NCBI GenBank assembly: GCA_036630325.1
Contig: CP142731.1
Coordinates: forward strand, 372,001-436,000
Length of the DNA stretch: 64,000 nt
Source: Vairimorpha necatrix
Lineage: Eukaryota
Direction of reading: 5' to 3'
Shown: positions 4,864-55,412 of the stretch, one piece after another
How positions within the stretch are numbered: the first letter of the stretch is position 1
How the letters are laid out: each line of letters begins with the position of its first letter
Translations under genes and position numbers: made by a program
Notes under the pieces: generated by a model
Told to the model about the DNA's origin: nothing
Databases searched by the model: none
The model's input: the letters and a program-made list of their open reading frames with translations, nothing else

Positions 4864-4912
4864 TGTCTTTATTTATCATAATGGGGGATAGAAATTATAC
4901 AAATATATCACA
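4864..4912 (-). repeat. 3' LTR of copy 1 (49 bp)
   Basis: Direct repeat of 8019-8067 with TG...CA ends, abutting the polypurine tract. Confidence 0.9.
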
Positions 4913-4933
4913 TCCCCCTCAAGACGGGTAGTC

Positions 4934-7900
4934 TCATCCAATTTTCACATCTACCCCAAGCATACTCATCAGGTCATAATGTCTCTTCTTCACAAGCCTA
5001 CCATTACTAAGTTTTACAATATAAGAATCTTTTCCACACTTTTCAACAATTCCCCCTGTATCCACAAATCTTCCTTTTTCATACTTATTACCACCTGCCA
5101 AATTTTCTCGTTTAGCTATTCTTACCATTTGACTTTTACTAAATTTTTCAATCTTTCCTTTTCCAAACCTATTACAATATTTCCCTATAGGCTATTTTCA
5201 AGCATTGCATCTCCAGTTTTATCTTCAGTCGCTTCTATTGGTGTACATTTTATTCCTGTATGATAGCTCTGATTAATATCGATACTTATATAAACTTTAC
5301 CTTCAAAAGTTTGCGCTTCCGACTTAAAATATTTTCTCTCAGTTTCTATAACACGCTCTACTCTACCGTTACTTCTATGCGCTTCTATGATTATTGTTGA
5401 AGTATTATATCCAGATCTCTACAAATTTTTATAAATTCCCGCCAATAAACTCTTTCTCGTTATCTGTAATATTTCTTTCGGTTTCTTCCCTTGCTCACAT
5501 AATCTTTTCAAAAATCCAATAACATTATTACTTGACTTGTTATTTATAACTACTCCTCATACTCTTCGTGTAAAATAATCGATAGCAACTAAAACATATT
5601 TCTTCTCATTTCTAAAGTCTATCAAATCTAATGCAACCTTCTCTAGGTATCTCGACGTATTACAAATTCACAACCACCCATATTTTTTCAGTTATATATC
5701 TGGCATTTCTGACACTGTTTTATAACCTCGTTTATTTCTTTCTTTACTCCTGGCCAATAGTATTCTTCTCTCATTGCATAATAAACACTTGTCATGCATC
5801 TGTGGCCTATTTTTTCATGATATTCTTGGATTAATCGTCTCCTTATATTCTCTGGTGAATCTTCAACTTTACGTCCTGAGTCAAATTGCCAATATTGCTT
5901 TCCATTCTCGGAAGAAACATGTGCTTTCCATTTACCTTCTGTTTGCTTAAGTGTTCGCTCTTTATTTTTCATTTCTTTAATATCCTCTTCCATATTTATT
6001 CGACTCAACGCATCTGCTACCACCATCTCATCAGGTTTTTTATATTCCACGATAAAATCATATTCCTGTATCTTCTCGATTAAGCGATTTATTTTGTTAT
6101 TATTAAAAAACGGTTTATTTCTTATCTCCACCAGTGCTTTGTGGTCCGTTTTTATCTTGAATTTTCTACCTCTTAACTCGTATTTAAATTTATCAATGCC
6201 CCAATATATCGCAAGCATTTCCTTTTCTGATATACCATATCTTACTTCTGTCGGTGTTAGCTTTTTAGATGCCCATTGTATAGCAACTTATTCTCCATTC
6301 TCATTCTTCTGAAGTAACACCGCACCCAATCTCAAATTGCTAGCGTCTGTTCTTAGTATGAACTCCTTATTATAGTCCGGTAATCTTAGTCTTCCCACAT
6401 TTCTTAACACATTTTTGTATTTCAGTAAATTCCTTTTCCATCTCTTTCGTAAATTTCCACGAATTGCTATTTTTCTTCAAACTATCTGTCATTTTCAACG
6501 TCAACCCGGCATAATCATTTATAAATGGTCTGAACCATCAAGTCAATCCTAGAAATCTCCTCAATTCCGTCAAAGTTTTTATATCTGGATACTCCAAGGC
6601 TTCATTTTTCTTTATTTCGTCGGCCATCATGTCTATTCCATTCAGCGTCACACCTAATAATTTTACTTCCGCTTGTCTAAACTGTATTTTCCCAATATTT
6701 AATTTCATTTTATTTCTCTTAATTCTTTCTATAACCTCTATTACTAATTCATCGTGTTTATGTTTATTGTTGGCATGTATTACTATATCGTCCATGTATA
6801 CCTCAACACCATTTCCTCGCAAATCTTCAAAAATCGTATTCATCGTTCTCTGTAGTATCTGTGGGGAATTTTTGTATCCCATCACCATACATTTCCATTC
6901 GTAAACTTTTTTATTAAATTCAAACGCCGTCTTATGTTTATCTTTTTCTTCGATTTCAAAATGGTAAAATGCTTCTTTGCAATCACAACAGTAAATATTA
7001 TCGACCCTTGCGTAGCTCTTATTATTTCTCACATATTAGTTAGCTCATACGGGTCTTTCTCGGCCAAATCATTCAACCCTATAAAATTACTAACTACTCT
7101 TACTTCACCACTTGGTTTAAGTATCGCTCTTATTGGGTTTCGCCATTCCGATGACGATCTTCTAATAAACTTTCTATTTTCTAAATCATTAATATATTCC
7201 TCTGTCTGTTTGATTAAAGCCTGTGGAATCGTCTGTCCCTTTCTGACTATCTTCTTACCCTCAGGAGTATCTATCTTACACTTCTCTAATGTACAATAAC
7301 TTATAACCTCATCTCCTTGTTTAAAAACTTCTTCATATTTCGCTTTAAGATCTTCCAACGTAAATGCCCTCTTCAGTAATCTTCTTTTCGTCTCTTTATT
7401 GCTCGCATATATTCTTTCTTTATGTCTTCTATCACTATTATTACATTCTTTTAAATAACTCGTTTTGTCTTTCCACTTGGTTTATATTCTTTATTATCAT
7501 TACTGCTACTACAAATTTGGTTTTCGTCTAAATTTAAGTACTTATTAAAATTTTTGTAATTTTTCTGACTATTGTTCCTTCCTACATAACAGTTCCTAGC
7601 CATATGGCCGAATTTCCCACAATTAAAACAATTCCTATTTCTTCTTATTTCTTGTACTGTATTCCTCAAAACTAAATCTTTCTCTTGCATTTCTTTTCTC
7701 ACAATTTCTCTGACATTCTCGGCTATAGCCTCCATAAGTTCTCTCCTATTTTCTTCTTCTTTTTTAGTTTTTTCTTCTCTACACATTCCCTCCTCTAATT
7801 TCTAAATTATTATATAATATTCGTCCTCTTTACTAATTCTTTCTACCATGAAATTTTTTATTTCTTCACTTCCTTCCATAAATATTCTCTGTTTCCACAA

Positions 7901-8034
7901 ACTGGATTCTACTTCCTCCATCTCTAACCTATACATGATTCTTCTAACTTCCTTTAATAGCTTTTTGGCCTCTAGACCACAGTCCACACTTGTAAACTGA
8001 CGATTCGGTATAGCCCCATGTCTTTATTTATCAT
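4934..8034 (-). pseudogene. Fragmented gag-RT-RNaseH-integrase polyprotein of LTR copy 1
   Basis: ORFs 7802-7987, 7451-7786, 7029-7358, 6538-7032, 5688-6218 and 4934-5128 are collinear with the copy 2 protein; multiple frameshifts and stops. Confidence 0.9.
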
Positions 8035-8067
8035 AATAAGGGATAGAAATTATACAAATATATCACA
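8019..8067 (-). repeat. 5' LTR of copy 1 (49 bp), contains the gag ATG at 8034
   Basis: TGTGATATATTTGTATAATTTCTATCCCTTATTATGATAAATAAAGACA, followed directly by a TGG PBS. Confidence 0.9.
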
Positions 8068-8533
8068 TTTTATATAAATTCACACCGTTAAAAATTACAC
8101 ATAAATAATTGCAAAAATACACAAACATAAAATAAGTGAAAGTATATGGTTCTATATATAATATATTGATATAATCAACACATGCGATCACAATAATTAG
8201 TAAAAAAATCATTTTATATGCCCCTTAAGAATTCATATTATACTAAAATTTAAACAAAAAATGCGATATATGAAACATAGACTCTAGTTAGGGTCTTCGA
8301 AATTATATTAATTTTTTTGTAAAGCATTTTTTTTATATAATTAATTATAGAAAATCACATTGTAATAATTTTTTTAAATTATTAGGACATTTCGAACCTT
8401 ATGACATATAAATGTATTTTAAACAAACAAAATGCAATAATACATAGTTATTTTGATTATTTGACCATACTTTCGACTCTTCCTTTTCTTTGAATGGATT
8501 TTATGGAAAAGAATACATTTATAAAATATGATA

Positions 8534-8582
8534 TGTATTTAATTATCATAATTGGGGATCAAAAATATAAGAATATATAACA
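8534..8582 (-). repeat. 3' LTR of copy 2 (49 bp)
   Basis: Direct repeat of 11628-11676 with TG...CA ends, next to the PPT. Confidence 0.92.
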
Positions 8583-8599
8583 TCCCCCCTCCAAGACGG

Positions 8600-11500
8600 T
8601 TAGTCTCCTACATCACCATTAACCCCAAGCAGATTTTTCAAGTCATAATGTCTCTTTTTAACATATCGCCCATTAGATAGCTTCACAACATACGAGTCCC
8701 CAGGGCATATCACCATTATAATACCTTCGTCTAAAAACCTTCCCTTTTCATATTTATTACATCCTTTGATGTTTTCTTTCTTAGCTATCCTTATTCGTTG
8801 TCCTTCAATAAACCGCTCTCTATATCTTCTAACAAATCTTTTACTGTAGTCTCCTTCTGGTCCATTTAATATCATCACTTTTCCCGTATTGTCTTTTACC
8901 GCTTCATTGGGAGTACTTCTTATACCTTCATGGTAACTATTATTATAAATTTTAAAGCTTTCCATCACTATGTCTTCAAAACTCGCCGTCTCTTTACTCA
9001 TTTTCAATATTAGCTCTCTAAGCGTTCCTATAACTCTTTCAACTCTACCATTGCTTCTATGAGACTCGACACTCACCTTATTATGGGTAATATCCAATTT
9101 TCAACACAAATCCTTAAAGTCAACATTATCAAATTCCTTTCCATTATCCGTTATTATTTCCTTCGGCCTCCTGCCATTTCTACATAAGTTCTCAATAAAC
9201 TGGGCCACAGAGGATCTCTTCTTATCGTATAATACACATCCCCACGCTATCCTCGTATGGTAATCTATCGCAACTAATACATATTTGCCCTTATCTCTAA
9301 AATCATTTAAATCTAACGCTACTTTTTCTAAATACCTGCTTGTAGCAACAAAATCACATCCTCCAGACTTTTTTCTATTGTAAATTTGACACTCCTCGCA
9401 TCTTTTTATCATTTTCACTATATCTTCTTTTATTCCTGGCCAATAATAATCAAACTTCATGGCATAATACATGCTTCCTAGTCCTCTGTGTCCATGCTCT
9501 TCATGATAACGTCTCATAAGCTCATCTCTTTCTTTTATTTTAGGAATCAATGCTTTCCTCCCCGAATCAAAATTCCAGTATTCTTTACCGTCTATTGTCT
9601 AGACGTGCTTCAACCATTTACCTTCAATTTGACGCTCACTTCTTTTTTTTATCATTTCTTTTCTTGGATCAACCTCCTCGTGTATCCCACTCAAAGCATC
9701 CGCCACGACCATATGTTCTGGTTTCCTGTAATCTATTTGAAAGTCAAATTCTTGGATCTTCTCAATCCATCGATTAATTCTATTATTATTAAAACACGGC
9801 TTTCTTCTTATTTCAGCCAATGCTTTGTGATCCGTTTCTACTTTAAATTTTCGTCCTCTTAACTCATACTCAAATTTTTTTATTCCCCAATATATGGCAT
9901 ACATTTCCTTTTAACTTATACCATATCTAGTTTCCGTCGGGGTGAATTTCTTCGATGCCCATTGTACTGGCACCCACTCTTCTTTATCATTCTTCTGCAT
10001 GAGTACTGCGCCCATTCCTATATTGCTCGCGTCAGTTCTTAATAAAAATTCTTTTCATAGTTTACAATTTTCAACTTACTCATACTTCTTAACGTTTCCT
10101 TCATATTTTCGAACTCTTTATTTAAGTCATCAGTCCAATTCAATACTTTACTTTTACCTTTCAAACTTTCAGTCATATATAATGTCTTCTCCGCATAATT
10201 CTTAATAAATCCTCGAAACCATCCACTCAATCCTAAAAATCTTACTATGTCAGACACATTCTGCGGCGTTGGAAACTCTAGTGCTTGGTTTTTCTTGATT
10301 TCAGACGGCATCATATCATCCCCGTTTAGTGTAACTCCCAATAACTTGACTTCCTTTTGGCAATACTGAATTTCCTTTGAATTTATCCGCATATTATTCC
10401 GTTCTAACAATTTCATCGCTTCTACAAATAATTTATCATGTTCTTTTCTAGTCTTCGCATGAATCACTATATCATCCATGTATACTTCTATTTTACCACC
10501 CAAATGTTTTTCAAAAATCTTATTCATAATTCTCTGCATGATCTGAGGCGAGTTTTTAAACCCCATGACCATACTATTCCATTCATATACTATCTTATCA
10601 TACTCAAATGCAGTCTTATGCTTGTCTTGCTCTTCTATTTCGATTCCATAAAAAGCCTCCTTAAGGTCTATAACACTGAAAAACTTCGATCCTTGCGTGT
10701 TCCTTATGATATCCCTAATGTTCACTAATTCATAAAGTTCTTTCTCCACTAAATCATTTAATGCCATGAGATTGCTAACCAGTCTTATACTTCCATCTGG
10801 CTTAATTAAAGCTTTAATCAAATTTCTCCATTCCGACGTCGATCTTCTTATGACATTCCTTGTCTCTAACCTCTGAATATATTTTCTCAGCTCTTCTTTA
10901 TGCGCTTGTGGCACCTGCTGACCTTTCCTTACAACTTTCTTACCTTCTTCAGTTCTGATTCTGCATTTTTCAATTTTACAATATCTTATTTTCTCTTCTT
11001 CGTTGTCTATAACGTTCCTAAACCTCTTTCTCATGTCTTCTAATGTTAGACCGTTCTTTTCTTCCTCATCATAACATCTTTTATTTCTTGTCTTCCATTC
11101 TTGTTTCTTTTGTCTTTTAGCATCCCATGTGTTCCTATAAGTCCATTCACCACAGCTACTGCTACCTTCTTCTTTAATACTCTCACATTCGTCTTTATTC
11201 TTAACATTTCTATATCTATAATAACACATCTGACTCTTATGTCCCATTCTTGAACAATTATAACATCTCATTGTTCTTCTCTTCTCAAATATTCTTTCCT
11301 CTCTACTAATATTTCTAATCTCCTCTGCCACCATCTTTGTGACCTCCTCAATCATCCGTAATCTCATATCCTTTTCCTCCTGTACTTTAACCAATTCCTC
11401 TAATTTGGTTTTCATAACTTTCCAATGATCTCCAATCTTAATATTCTTAACCATAAATTCTTTCAACTCATCAGTTCTAAGATCAAAAATCTCCTTCTTT

Positions 11501-11643
11501 ACATTTTTCTCAAAATCATAATCAGACAATACTAATCCATAAACAATCCTCTTAAACTCTTCTAATAACCTTCTGGCCTCTTGACCACAGCCAACACTTG
11601 TTAACTCACGATTCGGTATCGCCCCCATGTATTTATTTATCAT
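8600..11643 (-). pseudogene. gag(CCHC)-RT-RNaseH-integrase polyprotein of LTR copy 2, with a few disruptions
   Basis: 10039-11643: CYNCSRMGHKSQMC, IDLKEAF, YMDD. 9599-9904: RNase H (ETDHKAL). 9101-9550: HHCC, ALD, TDNGKEF. 8600-9097: SNGRVER. Confidence 0.93.
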
Positions 11644-11676
11644 AATTGGGGATCAAAAATATAAGAATATATAACA
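11628..11676 (-). repeat. 5' LTR of copy 2 (49 bp), contains CCCC motif, gag ATG (11643) and AATAAA
   Basis: TGTTATATATTCTTATATTTTTGATCCCCAATTATGATAAATAAATACA. Confidence 0.92.
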
Positions 11677-11825
11677 TGATATATACCTAACATCAGTCAA
11701 ATTCAAGGGGTAAAGACTTATAAAAATATTATATTGATTAGATTTTTGCTAAAGGTTAATTTGAACGCAAAAAATAAACAATTACAAACATGATGTCGCT
11801 CAAAATTTTTAATATTGTTTTTTTT

Positions 11826-12957
11826 GGTTAAATTGCGATGTTACCCCCCCCCCACCCCTAAAAAAATAAAAAAAAGGGGAAAAAATAAAAAAAGGGGAAA
11901 AAATAAAAAAAAGGGAAAAAAAATTTATTCAATTAATTCAAAATCAAATTCGGGGGCTAAATCGTAATTTAAAAATGATATATTATCAATCTCAAAAAGC
12001 ATAACATTCTTTCAAGTAGTGATTCTCTATAAATTAACTTAAAACGAGCTATATAAAGTTTTCGAATGAGATTCATCAAGAACCATGGCTTGTTCCTTCT
12101 TTGCGCAATTCCCTTTTAATTACAGACCACATTCCCTCAATTGTTTGGGTGTGGGCGCCTGTTGTTGGATTTACAAACTTTTGGCTATGATTTACAGTTA
12201 AATGTAAATAGTTATAACCCGGAATAGTTCCGAAAACCCTATATAACCTCGCCAACAATCAGTAATAATTGTAAAACCGGGGGCGATTTTTCGTTTTATT
12301 AAATCGACAAGAGTATTTCTTGGTCGATTTTCAACAATTTCGAAAAAAAAAGAATTGCTGTCTCCTAGTACAACCCCACCAACGGCCCAAACTTGGTATT
12401 GAAGGATTCTACCGTTATGGTTTTTACTTTTAACAAGCAATGTCTCGTCTATTTCAACTACGCAATTTAAACCTCCTATGGTTTTGTTTTGAAGGTAGTT
12501 GAAGTAGGATGAGAATACAGCGTTATTAAAACGTGTAAACCAGCGAGATACGGTACTACTATCTATATCCAATTCGATAGTAGCCGAAACATTGCTTACA
12601 CCTTTAACCCATTCAAACAGCAAAATTAAAAGATCTTCGATATCTAATCTAGAACTTTTAAAAATGCTTTCTTTGTAAATGTTACCTTTGTTTGAGCATT
12701 TTCTCCCATTTCGTCGTAAGTAACAACGATATTTGTCCAAATTATTTCTAATTTTGGTCATGTGTGTCATGCACTTATTGCACATTGGTACAAAAATATA
12801 TTTTTTTCAAGAAGAAATAAAAATAATTCCTCATTTTTATATATTAATTTTCTAAAATTTTTATGTTCATTTTAGGGGCATAATTTTTTCCCCTTTTTTT
12901 ATTTTTTCCCCTTTTTTTTATTTTTTTAGGGGTGGGGGGTAACATCGCAATTTAACC
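11826..12957 (-). mobile_element. Merlin (IS1016/IS1595-like) DNA transposon, frameshifted transposase
   Basis: TIR GGTTAAATTGCGATGTTACCCCC... with internal ~19-bp tandem units; 9-bp TSD GTTTTTTTT. Motifs VVEIDET, IITDCWRGY, HTQTIEGMW. CCC-preceded ATG at 12870. Confidence 0.95.
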
Positions 12958-49829: not shown

Positions 49830-52530
49830 ATAGTTAACTAAGTTATATTATTAAAAGTTTTAGATATAGAGATAGTTATTCATATTATAAAAGCAATACA
49901 TGATTAATGCAATTCTTATCAAATTTTTTTTCATGTCGGCATACATAGGATATTTAGTACACATTTAAGAGTTCTTTACTTTTTAAGATTAAGCACTATT
50001 AAGTGCAGAGTGATTTTATAACTAATAGGTAAACATTGCTTAAAGTTTTGCTGCTGAGCTGCGCATCAAACTTATGCAAAAACATTAATTTGCATGCATA
50101 CACAATGTGCGATATCAACCGAGTGAAGTTTTCATTAAAATCTCTTCTTTATATCTATTGTCTAGTGCATCAATAGCATTACCGCAAAAAGCTAAATTTT
50201 ACCTAAATATAGTATTAATCGGAAAAAATGCAATTATAATTTAACAAAAAGGATTGAATAAAATTTTATTGTTTTAGTTCCAATATTTTATAAATTTAAT
50301 AAAAAAAGATGCAGCTTATGAAGCCGAATTTTAACTAAGGTCAAACTGATAATTCTAAGTTTAAATGCGTTACTAATATAATAAATGATGCAGTGCTAAC
50401 TATTATATATAGGGGGTTTATTAAATATATGTGCATGTTTTTCAAAAAATCGGTAAATATATTTGGCGCTTGTCTAAATTAAACTTCTGTATTGTTTTTA
50501 ATCAATGCTGTTTAAGCTGCAGATTATGAATTGTTTTTTTTTTTTTTTTTTGTGAAATACACACCGGAGATAATGTATTCTAACAAAAATTCTGTTAAAA
50601 TTTTGTAAAAATAGTTTTGATTAATATTTTTGTGTTTTTAAACTCAAATGTAATATCCAAATCATCTTGATTATCAAAATAAACATAAAACATTTAATCG
50701 ACAAATAAAATTAAGTCTATACGTCACTAATTGACGCTTTATTGCACTATAGATTTGATATTACTGTCTAACAACACGTTTTTTAATAGTATATATATAA
50801 ATCTTGTAAAATAATAAGTATTGGAAGTGCAGATGATAGTACGGTATAAGAACAGAATCATTTATATGTTTACTCGTGTATATTGTATTTTGCAATAAAA
50901 GACGGGATGATTAAAACATAAATTAAAATGCGGATTTCAGCTTTTGCCGTCTTTGAGACTAAAATGTTATCATTTTAAAGCAATAAAAAAGAATATAATA
51001 CCAACCTCGAATAATTATTTTGATGGTGTGAAATAAATCTAAGAAAAGATGTAAAAGCGGGGAATTCCTACAATTTAAATCTGAATAGCTAAAGCACTCT
51101 AATAATTATGTCTGTATTATAACTCTATATTCTTACTGATCATGAAATTTAGAATTGAAAGTATGCCAGGCCACAAAATTATTTAAATCAAATAAAACCC
51201 AATCTGTCTTTATTGAGTAATAAAATATTTTTCAGTGCAGTCGAATCTATTAATGAAGAACATTGGGATGTAGTCATACAAGTTTAAATTTTTACGAAGG
51301 CGTTTGTCCACTTAACAAATAAAAAGTCCAAATAGCATAATAATGTTGTATTTTATCTATAAAAGAGTGTACGAACATACTCAGTTTTTATAAATTAACA
51401 TTGCAATTGTAGAAAAAATTTTAAATCATCACCTCATGTCAGAAAAAATCTTAAAATTCTCGTTACAGGTAGTAAAATATTGAGATTTTGTTGTTTTTTA
51501 TAAGACTTTAAAGAAATTATAATTTTTTGTTTAGACCCAATATTCCTTTCTCTTACATTTCGATCTATATATCTTCATATAAAAACTAGTTAAAATACTC
51601 AAAAAATAACTCGATTTCTTATTCTTACATTTTCAATGTATCGTATGGCCTAAAATACATGTTTAAGCCAATTATTTATATTCTATAAGTTGGCATTATC
51701 ATCTTAAAGATCAAGTCTTTAGTATATTTAAATTCATTTCTAAGACTTTTTTTAAGCATCTTCACAAGTGATGATATTCTCCTCGTGTTTTAGCTATTCT
51801 ATTATGATATCATGGTAGGTGTTTATTTCATTGTCTCAGTACTAATAAAATTATTATATCAAAATTAATATACTTTATTGAGCAAACATAAAGACTTAGT
51901 TAAATAAAGTTTACAGCAAGATGTAAAATTATATATAACACGAATTTACAATGATCGAAAGAATTTTATTTTAAAATGCTGTAAATGAATCTGGAATTTT
52001 GGTATTATTGAAATGTAAGTGATAGTGCAATATACTCTAATATACTAGAAATAAAATACAAATATAATTTTTCGCCATAAAAATTTTTAAAAGAATTTTT
52101 GAAAATAATATTTTATTACATATTAAATGCAACAGTCTAATTTGAATCCGCTAGAATGTATCAAAGATCGCCTTAAGCAGTCTCAGATTTTCCCAGGCAT
52201 ACCCCCAAAAGATAATGACAAAGAACATGATCTTCTCTTCTCTTACGTATGTATAATAAATTAAGGCAGTAGTAATCACAAAAAATCCATTCGTCTTTCT
52301 GCAAATTGACGCATTTGATTGGCTACTAAAACTATTTAATTTATAAGTAAAATGAAGCCTACGTATCAATTCTGACGAAGTCTTAAAGGTATGTCCCACA
52401 AAATCTGTTTCTTACTTTTATTAATATTCGATCACATATTAAAAATGTTAATTTTTATTCATAATTTCCCCCTACTCTGTAAATCCTTAAAATATTTTCC
52501 CCATATAATAGTATATTCTTCTATTTTTAT

Positions 52531-52612
52531 GGCAGTGTGGCCGAGTGGTTAAGGCGGTTGATTCGAAATTAATTAAGTTTATCTTGCGCTGGTTCGAATC
52601 CAGCCACTGTCG
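52531..52612 (+). tRNA. tRNA-Ser(CGA)
   Basis: GGCAGTG/CACTGTC acceptor stem, TGGCCGAGTGG A-box, anticodon loop TTCGAAA, long variable arm, GGTTCGAATCC, downstream T-run. Confidence 0.93.
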
Positions 52613-52704
52613 ATTTTTTATATTTATAAAAAAGTATAAATTTAAGTTTTATTTTATCTATAAAGCACATTCTTCTTAATTATCGAACTTTAGTTCGATT
52701 TTGT

Positions 52705-54378
52705 TTAGTCAAGTCCGCCTGTTATAAATTTATCTTTTAATAAATCTTTCACTGTCGGTCTTTTCCTACAGTCTTCATTGAGACATGAACTTATAACAAA
52801 GTCTATTTGGTTTTTTATCTTTATATTCTTCCTTATATTTATTATATTCTCTTTCTTCTCTAAATATGTCTTATATGAGTCTAGAGGCGTCTTACCATAC
52901 CACAGTTCATAGAGAATTATCCCCAAAGACCAGACGTCACTGCTTCTTCTTTTCTTATTCTCAAAGAAGAGTTCTGGCGCGCAGTAGTTTAGAGTCCCGC
53001 ATACCATGTCCAGATCGAGTCTGGTTGTATTACTGCTGAGTATTTTTGATATGCCGAAGTCTATGATTTTAAGTTTGTTCTTTACAAATACAAAGTTTGC
53101 TGGTTTTAGGTCCCCGTGGATGATCCTGTTCTCGTGTATTCTGTACACGATAAGGAGTATCTCCTGCCAGATGTACCTGACTCTATTAAAATGAATGTGT
53201 AAATGTGCCCTTTGGCTCTTTATAAATGTACTCAAGACTAGTTCTCCGTATTCTAATAGGATAAATATGTTATCTGTCAATATTTCATAATCTACCATTT
53301 TGATAATCCCGTCTACATTCTCAAGTTTCTTAAGTAAATCTATCTCTTCCAGGAGTAGGCCCTTCAGGGTACTGTCCATTTCTATATTTATGATCTTTAA
53401 GGCGTAGAACTCGTTCTCGTAAAATACCTTGTAGACTTTACTACTTCCTCCTTTGCCTATGATATTTATCTTCATAAGCTTCTTTTTATTTATATAAAAA
53501 TAGTCTCTTTCTTTATTTACTGGTATATTCTCTTTGTCTTGTACTATTCTTAGTAGATTTGTATCTTCTCCGAATGTACAATCTTCTATTTTACATTTTA
53601 TTACATTTTCTTTATTTACTACTTCGTCCATATATGAATACTTATTTACATCATCAGTAATGGGCGTATTGGGGAAGATTCTATAATTCCTCTTTAAAGA
53701 AGGAGAATAAGAGACATCAGTAAACTGGACTTTAATATTTTCCATGACATTATTTTTAATCTTGATATTTTCAATATTTATGTTCTCTGTATCATTCTTC
53801 TTTATTTCATGAATATTTATATCGTTCTTAGTTATAAAATTATTCTTTATATAATTTATATCAATATTCTTTATATCGTCGTTATTCGTTATAATATTTG
53901 TATTAATATTCTCTTTTTCAATATTGTTTTGATCATCATTATTTTTTATATCTTCTTTATAATTTGGTGCATCGTTGATCTCTTCTATGGTCAACCACTC
54001 CTTTCTCCAAGTATAAACAAACTTCTCCCTATCTTGACTATTTCTAACTTCTTGTAAAAACCTCAATATCTTTTCTTTATCTTTAAACTCCTTAACATTC
54101 AGGAACTTTATACCTTCATCAACAATCTTATCAACTTTACTTTTACTAATTATCAAAAAACTAACATATTCTCTCCAAAAACACCAGTACTTAAAATATT
54201 TCAATTTACTAGTCTTAAATATCACCAATATGTCATCGCTCTGAATATAAATCAAACATTTTATATAATTCAAAAAGATGATTACCATGTAATCATCAAC
54301 AAGAAAATCTTTCTGGATACTTTTAAACAAGAGACTCAGTTTTTGGGAAGAAGATTTTGGTTCATTTAACTTGTCCAT
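52705..54378 (-). CDS. MPS1: Mps1/TTK family spindle checkpoint kinase
   Basis: C-terminal kinase with IGKGGSSKVYKV, HGDLKPANF, LKIIDFGIS, GTLNYCAPE, SDVWSLG (Mps1-type signatures). Confidence 0.88.
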   Translation of the reverse strand: MDKLNEPKSSSQKLSLLFKSIQKDFLVDDYMVIIFLNYIKCLIYIQSDDILVIFKTSKLKYFKYWCFWREYVSFLIISKSKVDKIVDEGIKFLNVKEFKDKEKILRFLQEVRNSQDREKFVYTWRKEWLTIEEINDAPNYKEDIKNNDDQNNIEKENINTNIITNNDDIKNIDINYIKNNFITKNDINIHEIKKNDTENINIENIKIKNNVMENIKVQFTDVSYSPSLKRNYRIFPNTPITDDVNKYSYMDEVVNKENVIKCKIEDCTFGEDTNLLRIVQDKENIPVNKERDYFYINKKKLMKINIIGKGGSSKVYKVFYENEFYALKIINIEMDSTLKGLLLEEIDLLKKLENVDGIIKMVDYEILTDNIFILLEYGELVLSTFIKSQRAHLHIHFNRVRYIWQEILLIVYRIHENRIIHGDLKPANFVFVKNKLKIIDFGISKILSSNTTRLDLDMVCGTLNYCAPELFFENKKRRSSDVWSLGIILYELWYGKTPLDSYKTYLEKKENIINIRKNIKIKNQIDFVISSCLNEDCRKRPTVKDLLKDKFITGGLD

Positions 54379-54388
54379 AACAAAATTG

Positions 54389-55412
54389 GGCTAATGTCGG
54401 CTTTAGGAGAAAATTTTCGATATAGGGTTTTTTTGTTTTTTTTTGCCCCTTTTTTTCAAAAATGGAGGAGAAAAAATGTGGAGGAAGAAACAAAAATAAA
54501 AATTAAAACAATAAATTTATTAATGCTTCAAACACAGAACTAGAAGAATTTCTTTGAAGCATATACCCGAATAAATAAAGTTTCGCGCTCCGAACTGATC
54601 TATTTCTATTTGGTATAGAATTTTTTAAAGATCGCCAATTACCTTCTATGGTATTGGTATGAACTCCAGTAAGTGGGTCTCTAAAGTGTAGAGAATGATT
54701 TACCATTAGATGTTGGTTAAATATTAAGCCTAAATTATGGTAGGCTCTCCACATATCGCTATAAATTATACTATTTCTGTCTACATATTTTAACAAAAGA
54801 TTAGTTAGCGTTATTTGGTCTCTTTTCTTAATATATATAAATATAATTCGGCGGTGTATGGTACGTTCGACCATACCAAAACACCAGAAACCTTTCACAA
54901 TTCTACCTCTATTATTCTTATTCTTGCCAATCTTCGTCTCATCGATTTCCACTACTGTGTTTTCACCGCCTATAACGCCAATACTAGATAAATATTTTTT
55001 ATAAATATCCAATTCTTTTAACTTTTTTAGTATAAATGACACAGATTCCGCTGAACAACCCAAAATTTGACAAATAGATTTTCGAGGATATCCTAGAATC
55101 CACATATTAAGTATTTGTAATACTGTAATATGGTTAAGTCTAGAATCTTGGAATAAAGTACCTTTCCATATTGAAACTGTTTTTTTACAAGTACTCCATT
55201 TACACTTCAAGATAAGTTTTTGTTTATTCTTTATTATCATCTGACCATCACATAATTCACAATATTTTATTTTATTTTTGGTTATTAATGCATTATAAAT
55301 GTTTTCTAATTGCTCTCTTGTTTGAATTTTCTCCTCCATTTTTGAAAAAAAGGGGCAAAAAAAAACAAAAAAACCCTATATCGAAAATTTTCTCCTAAAG
55401 CCGACATTAGCC
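54389..55412 (-). mobile_element. Intact, probably young Merlin transposon (1024 bp, ~86-bp TIRs, 8-bp TSD CAAAATTG)
   Basis: TIRs GGCTAATGTCGGCTTTAGGAG... match by eye; TSD at 54381-54388 and 55413-55420; uninterrupted transposase. Confidence 0.97.
54503..55339 (-). CDS. Merlin/IS1595-family DDE transposase (278 aa)
   Basis: N-terminal CxxC...CxxxxC zinc ribbon, VVEIDET, IYSDMWRAY, HTNTIEGNW. Confidence 0.93.
   Translation of the reverse strand: MEEKIQTREQLENIYNALITKNKIKYCELCDGQMIIKNKQKLILKCKWSTCKKTVSIWKGTLFQDSRLNHITVLQILNMWILGYPRKSICQILGCSAESVSFILKKLKELDIYKKYLSSIGVIGGENTVVEIDETKIGKNKNNRGRIVKGFWCFGMVERTIHRRIIFIYIKKRDQITLTNLLLKYVDRNSIIYSDMWRAYHNLGLIFNQHLMVNHSLHFRDPLTGVHTNTIEGNWRSLKNSIPNRNRSVRSAKLYLFGYMLQRNSSSSVFEALINLLF

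Follow-up and report, generated by a model that had tools for sequence, protein, structure and literature searches.

Miniature LTRs resembling host gene boundaries in a compact Ty3/gypsy-type retrotransposon lineage of microsporidia

The gag start codon of Ty1 lies inside its LTR, which is a few hundred bp long, and the 5' UTR comprises some tens of nt. In the available text on this element, the PBS and neighboring cis signals are located within the GAG open reading frame (ORF) (PMC4974528). A start of gag downstream of the PBS, which a preliminary description of the DNA studied here had taken as known, is thus not a general rule. Ty3/gypsy elements of microsporidia, i.e., Nbr from Nosema bombycis and those of Anncaliia algerae, are described as encoding a single polyprotein in the accessible parts of two reports (PMC13174016, which cites Parisot 2014, and PMC4202319), and the Nbr polyproteins comprise gag, protease, reverse transcriptase (RT), RNase H and integrase according to the available text of a third (PMC2474625). 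LTR lengths of the described microsporidian Ty3/gypsy elements are not given in the portions of text found. Programs for de novo LTR detection presuppose a minimum LTR length of 100 bp (PMC1858694, in the part available). A short R is workable, as judged from the 10 bp and 11 bp listed for Sire and MMTV, respectively, in the accessible text of PMC3601003.

Here, we describe two related elements, A and B, found in the window, which denotes the whole stretch of 64,000 nucleotides that was analyzed. From their sequence we consider it fairly probable that their 49-bp repeats are complete, miniaturized LTRs of an ultra-compact, protease-less Ty3/gypsy lineage of Nosema/Vairimorpha-type microsporidia, in which the LTR would constitute a host-style gene boundary. 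The likeness to Ty3/gypsy (Metaviridae) comprises the order RT-RNase H-integrase, a CCHC gag, LTRs with TG...CA ends, a TGG-type PBS, a PPT and a 5-bp TSD. The elements differ from this group by LTRs of 49 bp instead of hundreds, a single ORF, a PBS inside this ORF and a total length of 3.1 kb; moreover, the protease expected of Ty3/gypsy elements was not detected in the lineage. As in Ty1, the PBS and nearby cis signals would lie in gag coding sequence, whereas the integrase of Ty1 precedes the RT (Ty1/copia) and here follows the RNase H. The elements of N. bombycis and A. algerae share the host group, the superfamily and the single polyprotein, but a protease is described for Nbr in the available text and none was detected here. 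Sire and MMTV are comparable in that their first-strand-transfer redundancy amounts to only ~10-20 nt, yet their LTRs reach hundreds of bp through a long U3 and U5. Finally, TRIMs are likewise miniaturized LTR elements and tend to escape default LTR finders, but they are non-coding and helper-dependent, while the present lineage encodes gag, RT, RNase H and integrase.

Both elements, with all of their features given below, lie on the minus strand. They are arranged head-to-tail and separated by 466 bp, with element A at 8534-11676 (3143 bp) and element B at 4864-8067 (3204 bp). The anatomy follows the order TSD, 49-bp LTR, TGG-type PBS, gag(CCHC)-RT-RNase H-integrase, PPT, 49-bp LTR and TSD. 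Four LTRs of exactly 49 bp with TG...CA ends had been claimed, and all four fit this statement: the 5' LTR (11628-11676, TGTTA...TACA) and the 3' LTR (8534-8582) of element A differ at 1/49 positions, and those of element B (8019-8067 and 4864-4912) at 2/49. Element A is flanked by a perfect 5-bp TSD, TATCA, at 11677-11681 (5') and 8529-8533 (3'), a match for which we roughly estimate a chance of ~0.002 given the local base composition; the flanks of element B, TAAAA and AAATA, agree at 3/5 positions. The first ORF piece of element A (10042-11643, 534 aa) fuses gag, with a CCHC knuckle at aa 127-140 (nt 11224-11265), to the reverse transcriptase without a protease. The remaining pol (8603-10054) continues in a different frame and encodes RNase H, the H2C2 and core domains of integrase and a C-terminal part. 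Along element A, the Pfam domains RVT_1, RT_RNaseH, Integrase_H2C2 and rve appear in gypsy order, full-length relatives match the elements colinearly by tblastn, and the top solved-structure relative is the Ty3 reverse transcriptase (4ol8, E 1e-29). Elements A and B are dead copies of a gypsy-type LTR retrotransposon, because A contains a single frame change (near 10045-10054) and three in-frame stops (9911-9913, 9599-9601 and 9101-9103), and the decayed gag-pol region of B (4913-8001) contains at least five frame changes together with several stops. A tblastn search with three full-length relatives matched no part of the window other than elements A and B.

Sequence comparison of the two elements yielded an overall identity of 63% with 111 gap columns, while the LTRs align gap-free with 40/49 identical positions. 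The best-conserved parts are the LTR (82%), the PBS (89%, 16/18) and the next 53 nt (79%), as compared to 69% for RNase H, 64% for RT, 60% for integrase and 45% for gag. This conservation of the LTR, PBS and post-PBS block above the coding parts argues that the repeats are not decaying stumps. The closest proteins derive from Vairimorpha necatrix (64% identity), Nosema granulosis, V. apis and Pseudoloma, which assigns the host to the microsporidia of the Nosema/Vairimorpha type. Elements of the lineage are 3.0-3.2 kb long and amount to little more than a single ORF; among the 42 family matches, 11 originate from contigs of 2.7-3.2 kb, and the intact relatives P0006, P0009, P0010 and P0026 (~880-935 aa) nearly fill a 3.1-kb element. 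Three further contigs, L001 (3024 bp, another host), L002 and L003, are of a microsporidian retrotransposon type and are filed under bacterial MAGs (Clostridium, Turicibacter and Thermoguttaceae bins), probably owing to binning contamination.

The 49-bp LTR combines several short motifs, which had been recognized in the preliminary description and which we could recover. A C-run and an ATG are present in 4/4 LTRs at LTR positions 26-28/30 and 34-36, corresponding to 11648-11651 and 11641-11643 in the 5' LTR of element A. The C-run is weak in the 5' LTR of element B, where it reads only CCC, and degenerate in L002. AATAAA, which had been attributed to three of the four LTRs, is indeed found in these (11632-11637 in the 5' LTR of A), and the fourth, the 3' LTR of A, in which AATTAAA replaces AAATAAA of the 5' LTR, still contains ATTAAA. 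Host genes were represented by all 18 ORFs outside the elements that were called mechanically from ATG to stop with a minimum length of 120 aa, among them two Merlin-type transposase ORFs. In 11 of these 18 ORFs, a C-run of at least three C is located no more than 20 nt upstream of the first ATG, compared to a background of 5-6%, whether random 20-nt windows or all ATGs of the window are considered, so that the arrangement in the LTR is of the host type as proposed. The spacer between C-run and ATG measures 1-5 nt in 8/11 host ORFs and 12 nt at maximum; in the four LTRs, the C-run precedes the LTR-internal ATG by 3-5 nt and the ATG formed at the junction of LTR and PBS by 18-20 nt. Downstream, A[AT]TAAA occurs at -9 to +40 nt of the stop codon in 10/18 host ORFs (background, 22-23% of 55-nt windows). 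In 8/18 it overlaps or immediately precedes the stop (e.g., TAATAAA; 34398, 57069 and 62309), and host genes thus merge their stop with the poly(A) signal. For E. cuniculi, the available text of PMC2803860 gives 5' UTRs of less than 7 nt, places a CCC-like motif immediately before the start and names AUUAAA as a frequent signal variant. Because of the C-run/ATG and A[AT]TAAA patterns of the host ORFs in the window, the LTR string CCCC-AATT-ATG-ATAAATAAA reads as if the start of a host gene had been joined to the end of one. The two transposase ORFs within the host set, at 54503-55339 (-) and 12198-12785 (-), carry an ISXO2-like/Merlin-type DDE transposase domain (E 7e-16 and 2e-4, respectively), and the former has a host-type C-run upstream.

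The frame that had been described as running out of the LTR straight through the PBS is confirmed by the 534-aa ORF (11643-10042), which opens with M-I-N-K-Y-M-G-A-I-P-N-R (peptide MINKYMGAIPNR) and covers the PBS. An in-frame TGA three codons upstream of the LTR-internal ATG (11641-11643) closes this frame, which rules out a gag start further upstream. A second ATG in the same frame spans the junction (11626-11628), where the terminal A of the LTR meets the initial TG of the PBS. The PBS of element A (TGGGGGCGATACCGAATC, 18 nt, 11610-11627) is read as (M)GAIPN(R); that of element B (TGGGGCTATACCGAATC, 8002-8018) shows the difference noted earlier, i.e., one missing G, which shifts the frame, and one G/T change. 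The open frame across the PBS is retained in relatives. In L002, an LTR of 47 nt (TGTT...CACA), as inferred from a single copy, is followed by TGGCAACACC with the frame MIGNDHMATPIK. We compared 21 gag N-termini including that of element A, which are gene-caller predictions, many of them from close kin, and hence not independent events. M-[G/A/E], the translation of (C)A followed by TGG, is found at the LTR/PBS junction in 19/21, and an in-frame M is located 2-6 codons upstream of the junction in 15/21. Judging by these predicted N-termini, a common layout holds throughout the family, in which the reading frame begins either within the final LTR codons or right at the LTR border and always includes the PBS.

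The same anatomy is compatible with a gag start at the junction ATG, in which case the LTR-internal ATG would be a dispensable in-frame extension or remain unused. This alternative deserves serious consideration, although we judge it to be unlikely. It draws on the prevalence of the junction M and on six of the 21 N-termini (P0012, P0020, P0062, P0064, P0065 and P0069), which begin at this residue without an upstream M; furthermore, the LTR-terminal CA and the TGG of the PBS generate an ATG automatically. In A and B, however, the distance of 18-20 nt from the C-run places the junction ATG outside the 1-12 nt of the host ORFs, while the LTR-internal ATG follows after 3-5 nt. An upstream in-frame ATG is also far more frequent among the N-termini than the background suggests, which is 9.6% of 354 ATGG sites in the window. 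In addition, R would become too short for strand transfer, unless transcription started well upstream. The host-like spacing therefore favors the LTR-internal ATG as the probable start in A and B. The earlier claim that the ATG opening gag lies in the LTR stands in that this codon is present in the LTRs of A and B, but has to be qualified for the relatives, in which the junction ATG is the commoner of the two.

Coding sequence also reaches the opposite end of some elements. In L001 (P0014), the pol frame crosses the PPT into the 3' LTR and ends with ...EEGMLGY* (2700-2740 of L001), as does that of P0026 with ...GGGMLDPI. In elements A and B, pol ends 18 and 28 nt short of the 3' LTR, respectively. 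All three reading frames are closed within the LTR. As judged from the pol frames that terminate inside the 3' LTR, the LTR is predicted to be coding at both element ends in some relatives.

With the LTR as a host-style gene boundary, a plausible model of expression can be drawn, in which the LTR would provide a promoter and a terminator of the host type. U3 would extend from LTR position 1 to ~29 and comprise the integrase end, with the AT-rich tract and the C-run acting as a micro-promoter. Transcription would start in the 3-5-nt spacer that separates the C-run from the ATG (LTR positions 34-36). With such a start just after the C-run, R(+U5) would comprise only ~16-20 nt and the minus-strand strong-stop DNA would be equally short. 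Translation of gag could begin with either of the two in-frame ATGs, the one in the LTR or the one at the junction, and the PBS would serve as codons in both cases. The 3' end of a host tRNA would prime on the PBS, its CCA pairing with TGG (pairing stretch TGGGGGCGATACC), and the first strand transfer would proceed via the ~20-nt AT-rich redundancy. At the 3' LTR, A(A/T)TAAA would direct polyadenylation. Only 4 nt separate the AATAAA from the terminus of the LTR, and the usual distance between signal and cleavage is ~20 nt in the available text of PMC2803860; cleavage would thus probably take place in flanking DNA, a few nt past the LTR, which would leave the 3' LTR complete in the RNA and possibly no conventional U5. 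Retroviruses with the signal in R ignore the cap-proximal copy, and the poly(A) signal in the 5' LTR would here be too near the cap for use. As almost no untranslated RNA would be left, priming and packaging signals would have to reside inside the coding region, i.e., over ~70 nt at the start of gag and over the ~30 nt that lead up to the PPT. The proposal that U3-R-U5 has collapsed into a host-style micro-promoter is sustained as far as the complete 49-bp LTR and the host-style C-run and ATG are concerned, and requires modification with regard to U5, which may be absent in its classical form.

Alternatively, the LTR could be promoterless and the elements could be transcribed by read-through from neighboring host genes, the likeness of the C-run, ATG and AATAAA to host signals being coincidental. 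Transcription overrun and multi-gene transcripts are indeed reported for microsporidia in the accessible text of PMC2803860, and AATAAA is frequent by chance in this AT-rich DNA. We nevertheless consider read-through improbable: the C-run recurs at host spacing in 4/4 LTRs and in L001, against the low background described above, and the LTR is conserved above the RT. Non-homologous 5' ends of read-through RNA would also be expected to hinder the first strand transfer.

A TGG-type PBS follows directly 3' of the 5' LTR in both elements, with TGGGGGCG... at 11627 in A and TGGGGCT... at 8018 in B. An Rfam search of the window found a tRNA alone, tRNA-Ser(CGA) at 52530-52613 (+), which adjoins a protein-kinase ORF (52705-54378). 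This tRNA, the single one present, pairs with the PBS solely at CCA and was rejected as primer for this limited match. A primer tRNA matching the PBS was found neither in the window nor in L001-L003. The preliminary description had also brought up priming of the PBS by the LTR itself. In such a Tf1-like scheme, the 5' end of the RNA (LTR ...CCCCA) would fold back on the PBS (TGGGG...), and in both A and B, CCCCA can base-pair with the opening 5 nt of the PBS. Self-priming of Tf1 uses ~11 nt of complementarity, but here the match is confined to these 5 nt and extended in neither copy. Moreover, every PBS known from the family begins with TGG, as is seen in A, B and L002 and from the junction codons for M-[G/A/E], and this is the start expected for pairing with the CCA-3' of a tRNA. 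Self-priming thus appears quite improbable, and we favor priming by a host tRNA.

The expectation that further signals are embedded in coding sequence agrees with the 5' 120 nt of the elements, which are far better conserved than the remaining gag. The post-PBS block within gag (11557-11609 in element A) accounts for part of this region, with its 79% identity between A and B versus 45% in the remaining gag. This pattern fits cis functions within the initial ~70 nt of gag. A similar case may be made for the 3' end, where G-rich PPTs directly precede the 3' LTR: GGAGGGGGGA in A (8583-8592), GAGGGGGA at the end of the gag-pol region in B (4913-4920) and GGAGGAGGGGA in L001. Just 5' of the PPT, A, B and L001 have in common the block GAGACTA[A/C]CCGTCT[T/G], which reads GAGACTAACCGTCTT in A (8593-8607) and is located at 4921-4936 in B and at 2699-2714 in L001. 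The pol stop lies inside this block in A (TAA, 8600-8602); pol of B ends immediately ahead of the block and that of L001 beyond it. Its conservation despite the shifting pol stops argues for a function of the nucleic acid rather than of the protein, and the block is probably a cis-acting signal. Folding predictions yielded two small 5' hairpins common to A and B, with z-scores of -0.6 and -0.3 against shuffles, which is not significant; one base pair is changed on both sides between A and B, a comparison of two sequences only. Likewise, 5'-3' cyclization of the RNA (first ~118 nt versus last 127 nt) was no better than in shuffles, with duplex energies of -39.5 kcal/mol for A (shuffles -35.8 ± 4.9) and -39.3 kcal/mol for B (shuffles -36.3 ± 4.3).

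The homology between 5' and 3' repeats ends exactly at TG and CA, where the PPT, the PBS or the flank begins. A comparable arrangement is seen in L001, in which the PPT is followed by a 38-nt TGTT...AACA stretch, TGTTGGGTTATTAGCCCCTATTAAATAAATGACTAACA, that contains CCCC, AATAAA and ATG-ACT-AAC-A and fits the MTYMA N-termini of the closest protein relatives; the LTR lengths of 38 nt in L001 and 47 nt in L002 are inferred from one LTR apiece. A fifth LTR copy was found neither in the window, at up to 16/49 mismatches, nor in five mononucleotide shuffles under the same threshold, and the proposed search for solo LTRs of 49 bp therefore yielded none within the window. Our comparisons support the view that the 49-bp repeats are the complete LTRs of a real LTR retrotransposon, in agreement with the reading put forward initially. 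That they represent remnants of longer LTRs, through truncation of these copies or a mis-called boundary, is extremely improbable: LTRs are generally considered longer than 100 bp (PMC1858694, available text) and both copies in the window are defective, but the repeats have the same length in two elements of just 63% identity, abut the PBS and the PPT with homology ending precisely at their TG and CA, are enclosed by a perfect TSD immediately outside in A, and have equivalents of 38 and 47 nt in relatives of other hosts, whose predicted proteins begin 0-6 codons ahead of the junction.

The complete 49-bp LTRs set these elements apart from those described. The location of a PBS inside gag is not new, as seen for Ty1, and an LTR this short is the feature without a match in the literature found. 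To our knowledge, the shortest LTRs usually quoted are ~77-85 bp. A search of the full-text literature returned no description of LTRs below 100 bp in microsporidia, where an earlier one may still exist. We tentatively propose that the lineage could represent the smallest kind of autonomous LTR retrotransposon, i.e., a protease-less gypsy element of 3.0-3.2 kb with 38-49-bp LTRs that combine a host gene start and end, and with all cis signals in coding sequence. If true, a single ORF would begin within the 5' LTR, span the PBS and, in some members, extend past the PPT into the 3' LTR, and replication would proceed with a strong-stop DNA of no more than 20 nt. LTR length would then be set by the size of the host promoter and terminator and not by the replication mechanism, with a lower bound given by the integrase ends, a promoter of ~25 nt and a redundancy of no more than 20 nt. 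Such an element would have shrunk alongside the extreme compaction of host gene signals, which makes the lineage of interest for the study of retroelements and genome compaction. As anticipated in the preliminary description, LTR finders with a minimum of at least 100 bp, as given in the available text of PMC1858694, would not call elements with 49-bp LTRs intact. The LTR-retrotransposon content, insertion ages and solo-LTR counts of microsporidia may be mis-estimated under this assumption.

The lineage further seems to lack an aspartic protease, both in element A (8534-11676) and in the relatives P0001-P0042. No protease family of Pfam matched element A, even at E-values up to 10, and a protease domain was detected in 0/42 family matches. 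Three weaker outgroup matches appear to carry one, judging by their Pfam accessions. The motif D[ST][GA] is absent between CCHC and YxDD in 22/23 relatives, and 228 aa precede the RT homology here, compared to 587 in the Gag-Pol of Ty3 (7q5b). With no protease, it is a separate matter whether the polyprotein is cleaved at all and, if so, by what means. L003, a more distant gypsy element included for contrast only, retains a protease-like DSA motif. Just upstream of element A, at 11846-11925, we observed a C-rich homopolymer stretch together with three tandem A-rich/GGGG units of 18-19 nt.
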